The translations under genes and the position numbers were made by a program. A DNA stretch of 2,118 nucleotides from Naegleria gruberi (lineage: Eukaryota), in assembly GCA_000004985.1 (NCBI GenBank), contig GG739290.1. One strand, given 5' to 3'. A model generated the notes under the pieces. The model ran no database searches. It saw only the letters and a list, made by a program, of their open reading frames with translations, and was not told the origin of the DNA. This document shows, one piece after another, positions 1 to 2,118 of this stretch (its first letter is position 1; each line of letters starts with the position of its first letter).

Positions 1-1
1 A

Positions 2-15
2 ACGCAGGGATGCGT
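2..15 (-). terminator. Short GC-containing hairpin, ACGCA-GGGA-TGCGT, one base after the gene's TGA stop. It is a possible transcription terminator or RNA 3' stem.
   Basis: It has a 5-bp stem and a 4-nt loop, directly 3' of the stop on the minus strand. The window ends before any T-tract could be seen. Confidence 0.2.
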
Positions 16-16
16 A

Positions 17-1177
17 TCAGAAGTGTATGAATAAATTTCTTGAGGGATTGTTCATACATTTGGAGCTGTCAATTTTAACAATATTATTCTCTTTGTCTTT
101 AGAAATGAACGTGACATGAGATACAATCTTGTACTCATTTTCATCCAATTCAAATAACTTGTTAGAATCATCACCAGTCTTACAGGATGGAAACAATTCC
201 TTAATAGTGATAAGAGGTTTTGTGAGTTGTCTAAGAATTCCAATCCTATAACAAATACATTTCAAATCAATTCTCTCAAAATCTCTGGGATGAATTTCTT
301 GTTCTTTTAGTATCTTACTTGAAATGTAAGGATCTTTCTTGACTAGTTGTCTAAAGTATCGTGGTGCTATATACAGGCGACCTGTTGGAGTTTTATAAAT
401 CAATCCTTTCAAGAAGAGATCCTTTTCTTCTCTTGTCAGTGAAACATTCAATCCACACAATAAACGTGGTAATAATTCGGATTGAACTGATGGGTCGTTG
501 AATGATTCTTGCTTAACAAGATACCCTTTAATTACTTTATCGATATTCTTTTTCAATTCTGGAAATAGAACATCAGACTGATTTTTCCATTCTTGAAATG
601 TCACCTTTGTTAAAAAGGACGCAATTCCTCTCAAAGTAAGGTTCAACACTTCAGGTATTATTAAGGCCTCAAATAGCAAAACTCCCATTCTTCGTATAGT
701 TACATTGTTGGTAATGCTCATCATATTAATCATTGTAGTTGAACATTTAAAATAACTATTACTTAAATATTCCTTTAAAATTGTACCCAATTGTGATGTG
801 CAAAGAGGTGGTAATGTTAATTCTTGATTTCCAAATTCTGTTTCATTAAATCGTATATCAGAGATGTGTTTAAGACCTGATAGAATTGGAATCAAACAAA
901 CTCTACTTAAATTTAAATTGACAATATCAATGTTCACCATATAATTTCCAATGGCATATAAAGGACGTTTCCATGGAGTAAGTGTTGAATCATCCTTAAT
1001 AGTTCCAAACATTTGGTATAGGAATTGAACCTCATCCAGAGAAATGGTCATGAGTAAAATTTCATCGTTGTTAATAAATTGTTCCAATTTTCTTGTAATG
1101 TTTTGCAATGTGAAGAAATTGGTGGTACAATAAAGAGTTTTAAAGTAAGGGTTTAGCAATTCCACTAGATAACTGAC
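17..1177 (-). CDS. Downstream fragment of the same gene, about 386 codons. This is the 382-aa track ORF plus four further in-frame codons (V S Y L) at 1166-1177. The product is an unknown C-terminal region of the NTPase-like protein, and the fragment is not an independent gene.
   Basis: The track ORF 17..1165 begins with GTG, since rc of 1163-1165 'cac' is GTG and not ATG. The frame stays open upstream of it through the target-site duplication and into the element, up to a TGA at 1313-1315. The first in-frame ATG is residue 39 (MTISLDEV). The stop TGA is at 17-19. Confidence 0.65.
   Translation of the reverse strand, partial: VSYLVELLNPYFKTLYCTTNFFTLQNITRKLEQFINNDEILLMTISLDEVQFLYQMFGTIKDDSTLTPWKRPLYAIGNYMVNIDIVNLNLSRVCLIPILSGLKHISDIRFNETEFGNQELTLPPLCTSQLGTILKEYLSNSYFKCSTTMINMMSITNNVTIRRMGVLLFEALIIPEVLNLTLRGIASFLTKVTFQEWKNQSDVLFPELKKNIDKVIKGYLVKQESFNDPSVQSELLPRLLCGLNVSLTREEKDLFLKGLIYKTPTGRLYIAPRYFRQLVKKDPYISSKILKEQEIHPRDFERIDLKCICYRIGILRQLTKPLITIKELFPSCKTGDDSNKLFELDENEYKIVSHVTFISKDKENNIVKIDSSKCMNNPSRNLFIHF
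1031..1060 (-). other. Candidate Walker B motif ILLMTISLDE, of the hhhhDE type, about 115 residues downstream of the P-loop in the reconstructed protein.
   Basis: It lies in the 382-aa ORF at residues 36-45. It is a hydrophobic run followed by D-E. The assignment rests on motif logic alone, with no alignment available. Confidence 0.3.
1169..1177. repeat. Target-site duplication, left copy, ATAACTGAC. It is 9 bp, or 8 bp if the first A matches by chance.
   Basis: It is identical to 1853-1861 and abuts the TIR. On the minus strand both copies encode V-S-Y in the same codon phase. Confidence 0.65.
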
Positions 1178-1189
1178 TAGATCGCGGGA
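1178..1189. repeat. Left terminal inverted repeat, TAGATCGCGGGA. It extends to 14 matches in 15 positions, through 1192, when one mismatch is allowed.
   Basis: I compared it directly with the reverse complement of 1841-1852. It is GC-rich (CGCGGGA) in an AT-rich context. Confidence 0.7.
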
Positions 1190-1494
1190 AGTCTTTGAAA
1201 AAATGGGCCAGAAAAATTTTTTTCCAAGTCCAAAATACCAGCCATTGGATACCAGTTCGACTTTGCCAAAATTTCTTGGTATCTGAAAATTTTTACAAGT
1301 CGGTAATCTTGCTCACAAGCAAAGATAGAACACCAATATTGACTCTATTCCTTCTCTTGAATACTCTGCGAGTAATGAGGTAACATTTCATGCAGGAAAC
1401 CAACACAAATATATTGAACAAGTCTTTTATTGTGAAAATTTGGGAACTCAACAGAATACCAACAATAATCCAATCAAGAACTGATGACCAAACT

Positions 1495-1589
1495 CCAACA
1501 ACAAGAACGGAGCCAATATTGGTAACAGCAACCATTCATGCTTGAGCCTTCCGCAAATAATAATTACTATTATTTCTTGTTGTTGTTGG
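1495..1589. repeat. Internal inverted repeat within the element. CCAACAACAAGAA (1495-1507) pairs with TTCTTGTTGTTG(TTGG) (1574-1589), which includes a (TTG)4 microsatellite at 1577-1588. The arms could form a stem-loop with a loop of about 66 nt.
   Basis: I compared the two arms by reverse complement. They are 12 to 13 bp long, with one extra TTG unit on the right arm. Confidence 0.5.
1513..1522. repeat. Perfect 10-bp palindrome CCAATATTGG near the centre of the element.
   Basis: The sequence equals its own reverse complement. It lies between the two arms of the internal inverted repeat. Confidence 0.6.
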
Positions 1590-1707
1590 TGTATTAGCGT
1601 TAGCCAAACACCATATTGTTGTTCATCAATTCTACTAAAATTAGTACTAATGATGATACTATTCCACGTTATGCAAAATAAAGCCAGTTTTCTCGATGGG
1701 TAAAACT

Positions 1708-1729
1708 ATGTAGTTTCAATGTAGTTTCA
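1708..1729. repeat. Perfect tandem duplication of the 11-mer ATGTAGTTTCA, two adjacent copies.
   Basis: 1708-1718 equals 1719-1729. This is a slippage-type or replication duplication inside the element. Confidence 0.8.
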
Positions 1730-1840
1730 CTGCATTATTATATTTGGCTGATAATATTTTTTTGAATATTTTTTAAAGTTGACACTCAACTTGTCTCAAA
1801 TTTTCTTCCAGTCCAGCGGATCGACGAATTTATATCAACC

Positions 1841-1852
1841 TCCCGCGATCTA
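1841..1852. repeat. Right terminal inverted repeat, TCCCGCGATCTA. It supplies the in-frame TAG that truncates the upstream gene fragment.
   Basis: It is the perfect reverse complement of 1178-1189. Read on the minus strand, positions 1850-1852 (+ strand 'cta') form the stop codon TAG. Confidence 0.7.
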
Positions 1853-2118
1853 ATAACTGACTGGACACCCCATTAATCTTGCTAAAATTCGTAATCCAAA
1901 CATTTTCCCTTCAGTTTCTTGTTTCGAATAACCATAGTTAACCTCATCGCTTGTTAAGGTGTTACCAGTGTCTAAGGAAAGATTACAATGTAATTTTCTA
2001 TATTTATGTTCAGAATCCATGTTCATTTTAAGAACAATGTTTCGAATTTCCTTACAAGCTCTTGACTTTCCACTACCTGTACCATTGGATAGAATTCCAT
2101 ACTCAAAATATCCTTTCT
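1850..2118 (-). CDS. Upstream (N-proximal) fragment of the interrupted gene, partial at its 5' end. The visible translation is KGYFEYGILSNGTGSGKSRACKEIRNIVLKMNMDSEHKYRKLHCNLSLDTGNTLTSDEVNYGYSKQETEGKMFGLRILARLMGCPVSY* and contains a Walker A / P-loop.
   Basis: I translated the reverse complement of 1853-2116 by hand. The frame is open from the window edge, with no start codon inside the window, so the ORF track missed it. It ends at a TAG (1850-1852) contributed by the insertion terminus. The GTGSGKS P-loop is encoded at 2063-2083. Confidence 0.6.
   Translation of the reverse strand, partial: KGYFEYGILSNGTGSGKSRACKEIRNIVLKMNMDSEHKYRKLHCNLSLDTGNTLTSDEVNYGYSKQETEGKMFGLRILARLMGCPVSY
1853..1861. 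repeat. Target-site duplication, right copy, ATAACTGAC.
   Basis: It is identical to 1169-1177 and sits immediately outside the right TIR. Confidence 0.65.
2063..2083 (-). other. Walker A / P-loop motif GTGSGKS, in the context GILSNGTGSGKS.
   Basis: This is the hand translation of the minus strand, with codons acc-tgt-acc-act-tcc-ctt-tga reverse-complemented. It fits the GxxGxGK[ST] / G-TGSGKS type seen in many nucleotide kinases and FtsK/VirB4-like ATPases. Confidence 0.55.

Follow-up and report, generated by a model that had tools for sequence, protein, structure and literature searches.

A 675-bp terminal-inverted-repeat insertion probably splits a P-loop nucleoside triphosphatase gene on a small Naegleria gruberi contig

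Introduction

Is a 382-amino-acid (aa) open reading frame (ORF) on a small Naegleria gruberi contig a protein in its own right, or is it one piece of a gene that something has interrupted? The contig (GG739290.1, assembly GCA_000004985.1) is 2118 bp long and was analysed in full; "the window" below is this complete contig. It is AT-rich throughout (28-38% GC across its whole length), and its minus strand holds all of its meaningful coding. An earlier note, made from the letters alone, had proposed that the 382-aa ORF is half of a larger interrupted gene, that its GTG start is an artefact and that an upstream part carrying a Walker A motif had gone uncalled.

The explanation that best accounts for our results, and which we regard as very probable, is that ~490 codons in the window are the middle of a single P-loop nucleoside triphosphatase (NTPase) gene on its minus strand; that an 88-codon upstream fragment and the 382-codon ORF are parts of that one gene; and that the sequence lying between them is a non-autonomous DNA transposon with terminal inverted repeats (TIRs), similar to a MITE (a miniature inverted-repeat transposable element).

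Results

Homologues run unbroken across the junction

We began with the two coding parts themselves. The ORF (17..1165, minus strand) does begin at a GTG, and its frame stays open upstream of that codon through a Leu, through a Val-Ser-Tyr that is a copy of a duplicated 9-mer, and then through 45 more codons within the insert. Its first in-frame Met is residue 39. Starting at the contig edge, the N-proximal part (2116..1853) reads through 88 codons without a stop and holds the motif NGTGSGKS; its last 9 nt are the other copy of the 9-mer, after which comes TAG. The duplication is real, as ATAACTGAC occurs at both 1169-1177 and 1853-1861. Apart from the interruption, both coding parts are free of stop codons, in an AT-rich genome.

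On all these points the earlier note was accurate. Its remark that the upstream part had not been called needs a small correction: a 58-aa ATG-initiated ORF appears inside this part at a 30-aa cut-off. The Walker A motif is present and aligns with the motif of the family, but N replaces the canonical first G/A. The same N is found in the two closest relatives, the N. lovaniensis homologue (SNGTGNGKT) and P0018 (ANGTGNGKT).

Excision of 1178-1852 together with one copy of the repeat (684 nt, or 228 codons) yields ...LMGCPVSYLVELLNPYF... / ...GLRILARLMGCPVSYLVELLNPYFKTLY... in a stop-free frame of 471 codons. An empty-site allele is expected to read …TGTCCAGTCAGTTATCTAGTGG…. We used HMMER to compare this 471-aa reconstruction, in which the junction falls at residue 88/89, with 1.84 billion cluster representatives, a search that the earlier note had suggested. 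Seventeen proteins were returned, and 12 of them span the junction in one stretch. Examples are P0006 (query residues 6-456), P0014 (4-416) and P0008 (3-108, 46% identity), as well as P0007, P0009 and P0010. At least seven full-length homologues cross the junction without interruption: P0018 (881 aa), P0006 (806 aa), P0007 (768 aa), P0013 (735 aa), P0011 (622 aa), P0014 (617 aa) and P0012 (596 aa). P0018, a cluster mate of P0003, is a single uninterrupted 881-aa ORF on a metagenome contig.

In a multiple alignment, the insertion has Walker A on its upstream side and Walker B on its downstream side, the homologues run unbroken from one motif to the other, and the insert is missing from every aligned homologue. 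Since the two motifs lie on opposite sides, the insertion splits one nucleotide-binding domain, and annotating the ORF as an independent protein would misstate the architecture of the gene, as had been claimed. In an AlphaFold model of the reconstruction (mean predicted local distance difference test score, pLDDT, 71.8), residues 88/89 belong to a helix that was modelled with confidence (block means 86-89) and that follows strand 38-47 and precedes the Walker B strand at 124-133.

The only protein that matches the window at 100% is P0001, an N. gruberi "predicted protein" of 344 aa. It starts exactly at residue 39 of the ORF (ATG 1051..1049). The Walker B strand LLMTISLDEVQ occupies residues 37-47 of the ORF, with LLMTISLDE at 1057..1031, and the annotated start Met of P0001 falls within it. 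The public 344-residue model is wrong; it is a fragment of an element-disrupted gene. Exact-protein look-ups of P0001, of the 382-aa ORF and of an 80-aa ORF inside the insert returned no record.

Because coding runs off both position 1 and position 2118, the gene is truncated at both contig ends. The extension beyond 2118 that the earlier note proposed has no sequence to draw on, as the contig stops at that position. Relative to the repaired N. lovaniensis gene (993 aa), the window lacks ~390 N-terminal and ~130 C-terminal codons. The ORF thus belongs to a larger interrupted gene, but it is not half of it, as relatives in the family are ~600-1000 aa long. When we used the N. lovaniensis N-terminal model P0005 to look for the N. 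gruberi contig with the missing N terminus, only P0005 itself was returned. A scan of the window for bacterial promoters and terminators was set aside as not meaningful, the host being eukaryotic.

The insert has the ends of a TIR transposon

The sequence between the coding parts is bounded by repeats of two kinds (Table 1). The direct repeat, a candidate target-site duplication (TSD), is perfect over 9 bp; counting the T that follows would make it 10 nt. Directly inside it lie inverted repeats that are complementary at 14/15 positions, with the first 12 nt perfect; the similarity reaches ~26 nt when gaps are allowed in the alignment. We shuffled the window 3000 times with its dinucleotides preserved, and in no shuffle did a 9-bp direct repeat adjoin a perfect inverted repeat of 11 nt (0/3000). 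Only the 9-bp duplication gives symmetrical termini, and on this ground we rejected both a hAT-type parse with an 8-bp TSD and a parse with a 10-bp TSD, whose termini are asymmetrical. In gene orientation the first three bases of the element are TAG (1852..1850), which end the upstream fragment.

Table 1. Positions of the features discussed in the text.
Feature	Position	Strand	Basis
Probable MITE-like terminal-inverted-repeat element, 675 bp, non-coding	1178..1852	.	TIR and TSD; missing from the N. lovaniensis locus and all homologues
Target-site duplication, copy 1 (ATAACTGAC on the plus strand; GTCAGTTAT, Val-Ser-Tyr, in gene orientation)	1853..1861
Target-site duplication, copy 2 (ATAACTGAC)	1169..1177	.	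Repeat finder
Terminal inverted repeat, arm nearer the 5′ side of the gene (ACCTCCCGCGATCTA on the plus strand)	1838..1852
Terminal inverted repeat, other arm (TAGATCGCGGGAAGT on the plus strand)	1178..1192
N-proximal coding fragment, 88 codons (KGYFEYGILSNGTGSGKS...LMGCPVSY)	1853..2116	-	Translation; alignment with 15 homologues over their Walker A region
P-loop / Walker A-like motif NGTGSGKS	2063..2086	-	Aligned with family consensus GGxGxGKTRA
C-proximal coding segment, Leu (1168..1166) and Val (GTG, 1165..1163) to ...KIDSSKC	56..1168	-	Frame of the 382-aa ORF
Walker B strand LLMTISLDEVQ	1025..1057	-	Aligned with family motif hhhhLDExQ; predicted beta-strand 124-133 of the model
Interval with +1 frameshift (16 nt between the Cys codon and GAA, 15 in N. 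lovaniensis)	39..56	-
Continued coding after the frameshift (TIPQEIYSYTSDTHPCV), without a stop up to the contig end	1..51	-	tblastn

The element is non-coding. Its longest ORF is 80 aa, and its six-frame translation, searched as one concatenated query, found no homologue in a set of 5.8 billion proteins. No Rfam family scored above threshold in the element and no tRNA was found; a sub-threshold match to a group II fragment (Rfam, E = 0.26) was dismissed. As a single strand the element folds with its termini paired (z = -3.9). Its GC content is 34.5%, compared with 32.1% for the coding parts, and composition is uniform over the junctions. A perfect 11-nt tandem duplication (ATGTAGTTTCA x2) lies inside it at 1708-1729.

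In collections that do not include the N. gruberi genome, metagenome scans for the extended TIR and for the reconstructed empty site gave no match, and neither did a search of phage DNA with the element. Thirteen matches to the 15-nt TIR in a viral scan were taken as chance, as they were single and unpaired and showed no further similarity.

The N. lovaniensis locus is colinear and lacks the insert

The N. lovaniensis locus on PYSW02000014.1 (L001) is colinear with the reconstruction and lacks the 675-bp insert. It serves as an insert-free comparison site from another species, not as an allele. Query residues 1-80 match L001 9526-9786, the upstream fragment being 49% identical, and residues 76-459 match 9758-10897, the C-proximal segment being 46-48% identical over ~385 residues. 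The two matches are in different frames, and this is where two annotated models adjoin, C9374_001841 (483 aa) and C9374_001842 (444 aa). Together these models make up one homologous gene split by a frame change (L001 9754-9830). When the DNA is aligned, N. lovaniensis lacks 14 nt next to an A5 run, and this gap is immediately 5′ of the bases that pair with the N. gruberi target site in the alignment.

The earlier note had stated that its proposal would be refuted by homologues that align to one half only and stop at the junction. The annotated N. lovaniensis models do end and begin near it, but this is because the frame changes within continuous homologous DNA and not because there are two genes.

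A second relative is also broken. A paralogue found in two independent metagenomes (L002 1031-3547 and L003 444-2789) carries two frame changes and a ~68-residue internal deletion relative to P0018. A sister contig from the same ENA sample, L004, is intact (881 aa). As both samples show the broken version, the paralogue is probably a real decayed copy.

A second lesion lies near the contig end

The end of the ORF also departs from its relatives. Its last residues (…KIDSSKCMNNPSRNLFIHF*) lose similarity to them just past the Cys. Using tblastn, we found that P0002 residues 305-317 (EVYSYTLSTHPCV), from N. lovaniensis, match window 39..1 at 10/13 positions (E = 4.7e-4). This match is colinear with the main match, which ends at 56, and the motif of the shifted-frame continuation is conserved in P0018 and P0004. 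The TGA at 17-19 is thus an apparent stop only, because of a +1 frameshift between 56 and 39. Judged from these reading frames, the stop of the ORF is an artefact, like its start, a point that is new relative to the earlier note.

The gene belongs to a P-loop NTPase family without a Pfam model

We next consider the family to which the gene belongs. Pfam gave nothing above threshold for the 471-aa reconstruction or for ten relatives; below threshold, the relatives matched AAA_16, ATPase_2, AAA_22 and NACHT. Marginal PADLOC matches were dismissed as P-loop noise, and a sequence-profile search of the PDB found no match. Foldseek, run on the model, ranked Avs4, ORC/Cdc6, Apaf-1 and the NRC4 resistosome first, all with low TM-scores. 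The top matches were Avs4 (E = 2e-4) and ORC (E = 1e-3), with TM-scores of only ~0.26-0.32. Each of the two Walker motifs aligns with its counterpart in the family, and the order of strands in the model fits a P-loop NTPase core; the fold is weakly STAND/AAA+-like.

The C-terminal domain of the family (P0002 residues ~300-420), which lies beyond window position 1, gave weak matches to restriction-endonuclease-like folds. A conserved C-terminal motif, D...(I/F)Q(Y/H)(K/R), followed by …ITN… and …YFxPNLLPYY, is consistent with these matches. We suggest, with low to moderate confidence, that these proteins may combine a STAND-like NTPase switch, a winged helix and a nuclease-like effector, the last of which would be encoded outside the window.

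Naegleria-type members also have a duplicated N-terminal module of ~100 residues (…LCMKKLDGGASLAVEKARTLYNAGFDGTSL… / …LCKQKLIGGAGLLEDRVQPLYQAGFNGTFL…) with no Pfam match. It is found at L001 8309-9300 (P0005 residues ~110-290) and at residues 1-200 of P0018. The distant members P0006, P0007 and P0011-P0014 lack the duplicated module. One 768-aa single-ORF member (L005 556-3944; GCA_037189345.1, JBBCKJ010035481.1) adjoins a fragment of a HECT-domain gene, a neighbour that supports a eukaryotic, not a viral or bacterial, home for the family.

Discussion

How did the locus come to look like this? In the history that we propose, a 675-bp element would have landed in the linker that joins Walker A to Walker B, duplicating a 9-bp target (GTCAGTTAT), with transposition as the likely mechanism. 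The TAG at the start of the element, in gene orientation, closes the upstream fragment. The downstream frame stays open backwards into the element, so that an ORF finder takes the first GTG or ATG and reports a free-standing 382-aa "protein". The second lesion is the +1 frameshift, which in gene orientation is close to the 3′ end of the window and yields the apparent stop at 17-19. The locus is probably a recently inactivated, young pseudogene that would have lost its function. We consider the inactivation recent because no other stop interrupts the coding parts, the two TSD copies are identical and the TIRs are almost perfect.

Several observations weigh against this history. Support for the assigned folds is weak, and Pfam offers no model above threshold. 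Mutator-like elements usually have longer TIRs than the 12-15 nt (~26 with gaps) seen here. The putative mobility and family membership of the element are argued from the structure of this one copy. In two relatives the frame is broken in roughly this region, within ~5 codons in N. lovaniensis and ~25 codons downstream in the L002/L003 paralogue. These breaks near the linker may reflect chance, a variable linker, errors of assembly or the trace of an old excision. The frameshift is no more than 60 nt from the contig end and could be a sequencing error, in which case only one lesion would be certain. Finally, 20 combinations of GT and AG across the insert would leave a stop-free frame.

This last observation also favours the alternative that the insert is spliced out as a spliceosomal intron, an introner-like gain, and that the gene still functions. 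The best pair joins a donor in the upstream repeat copy (cca|GTCAGT, 1861) to an acceptor that follows a pyrimidine-rich tract (ttttttcaaAG|, 1193); 669 nt would be lost, and the product would read ...LMGCP-TSRDL-VSYLVELL..., with five residues added. Another, from GTTATT (1857) to GATCTAG (1177), would remove 681 nt and add a single residue. That the coding parts are otherwise intact also agrees with an intron. However, no GT-AG pair excises the insert precisely, and the donors deviate from the GTAAGT of the one Naegleria intron examined, which at 47 nt is also more than 10 times shorter than a candidate of 669-681 nt. No CTRAC branch-site-like sequence lies upstream of the 1193 acceptor, the public gene model has no splice across the insert, and the extra frameshift argues for a dead gene. 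We consider a spliced intron very unlikely.

A bolder version holds either that the TIR element is a newly gained intron, using the GTCAGT donor and the pyrimidine-rich acceptor, or that the linker is a recurrent site of insertion and excision, where an old event of the latter kind left its footprint in N. lovaniensis as the frame change and the 14-nt gap. We give this proposal only a slim chance. If the intron reading were true, it would be a case of introner-type intron gain caught in a heterolobosean.

The insert could instead have arisen during assembly, through a chimeric join or the collapse of a repeat in so small a scaffold. In favour are the length of the contig, only 2118 bp, and the position of the frameshift near one of its ends. 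A misassembly would not give a perfect 9-bp duplication abutting matched inverted termini together with exact restoration of the frame, and base composition is uniform over the junctions. We find an artefact very improbable.

The suggestion that the ORF (17..1165), or its 344-aa version, is an independent gene, with the 88 codons as the end of a neighbouring gene and an intergenic spacer between, has in its favour only that the 344-aa product counts as a protein in the public annotation and that two adjacent N. lovaniensis gene models meet near the same point, and we count it as already refuted and give it almost no credence: it assigns the two Walker motifs of a single NTPase domain to different proteins and puts the annotated Met inside the Walker B strand, its "spacer" is bounded by a TIR and TSD and restores the frame exactly on excision, seven full-length homologues are unbroken through the junction, and the N. 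lovaniensis split is a frame change within continuous homologous DNA.

Insertion of a mobile element into a gene is a biologically ordinary event, and the main value of the locus is in annotation. Under the history that we favour, an element-disrupted NTPase gene, neither the 344-aa P0001 nor the 382-aa ORF is fit to serve as a protein family seed or as an orthologue. The locus would offer a clean, recent example of a TIR insertion in a transposon-poor genome, and the 675-bp sequence can be used as a probe for its element family. It also exposes an uncharacterised eukaryotic family of P-loop NTPases that has no Pfam model and has repeatedly been seen decayed. The N. gruberi genome has been reported to be very poor in transposons (0.28%; 2026 preprint). 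We found nothing specific in the literature on Naegleria MITEs, introners or Mutator elements.

Comparison with known systems

In general form the element resembles MITEs and other class II TIR transposons: it is small and non-coding, has TIRs, a perfect TSD of fixed length and termini that can pair, and here it sits inside a gene. It matches nothing in the collections searched and is known here from one copy. Mutator-like elements have TSDs of 9-11 bp and TIRs that are often 100 bp or more, and their autonomous partners encode a MURA-type transposase. The TSD of our element (9 bp, or 10 with the ambiguous T) is within this range, whereas its TIR is only 12-15 nt. The 2007 classification by Wicker and colleagues is said to give a 9-bp TSD as typical of Mutator-like or Merlin elements; on the 9-bp TSD alone, the element may have a Mutator- or Merlin-type affinity. 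Elements of the hAT superfamily have an 8-bp TSD and the terminus pattern YARNG; the terminus TAGAT of our element is only partly like this pattern, and its TSD is 9 bp, not 8.

Introners share with the element a TIR/TSD structure in a coding region, a length that together with the TSD is a multiple of 3, and GT and AG in or beside the duplicated target. They differ in that the splice sites here are not placed for exact removal and in that the element is known here from one copy.

For the gene, the system that we compare is that of STAND/AAA+ NTPases with nuclease effectors, namely bacterial Avs3/Avs4 and archaeal ATPase_2-type proteins (PDB 2qen, 2fna). The putative nuclease-like domain is C-terminal in this family, whereas in Avs4 it is N-terminal. 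In contrast to Avs3/Avs4 and the archaeal ATPase_2 proteins, the family, known here from sequence alone, is eukaryotic, and its Naegleria-type members carry a duplicated N-terminal module.

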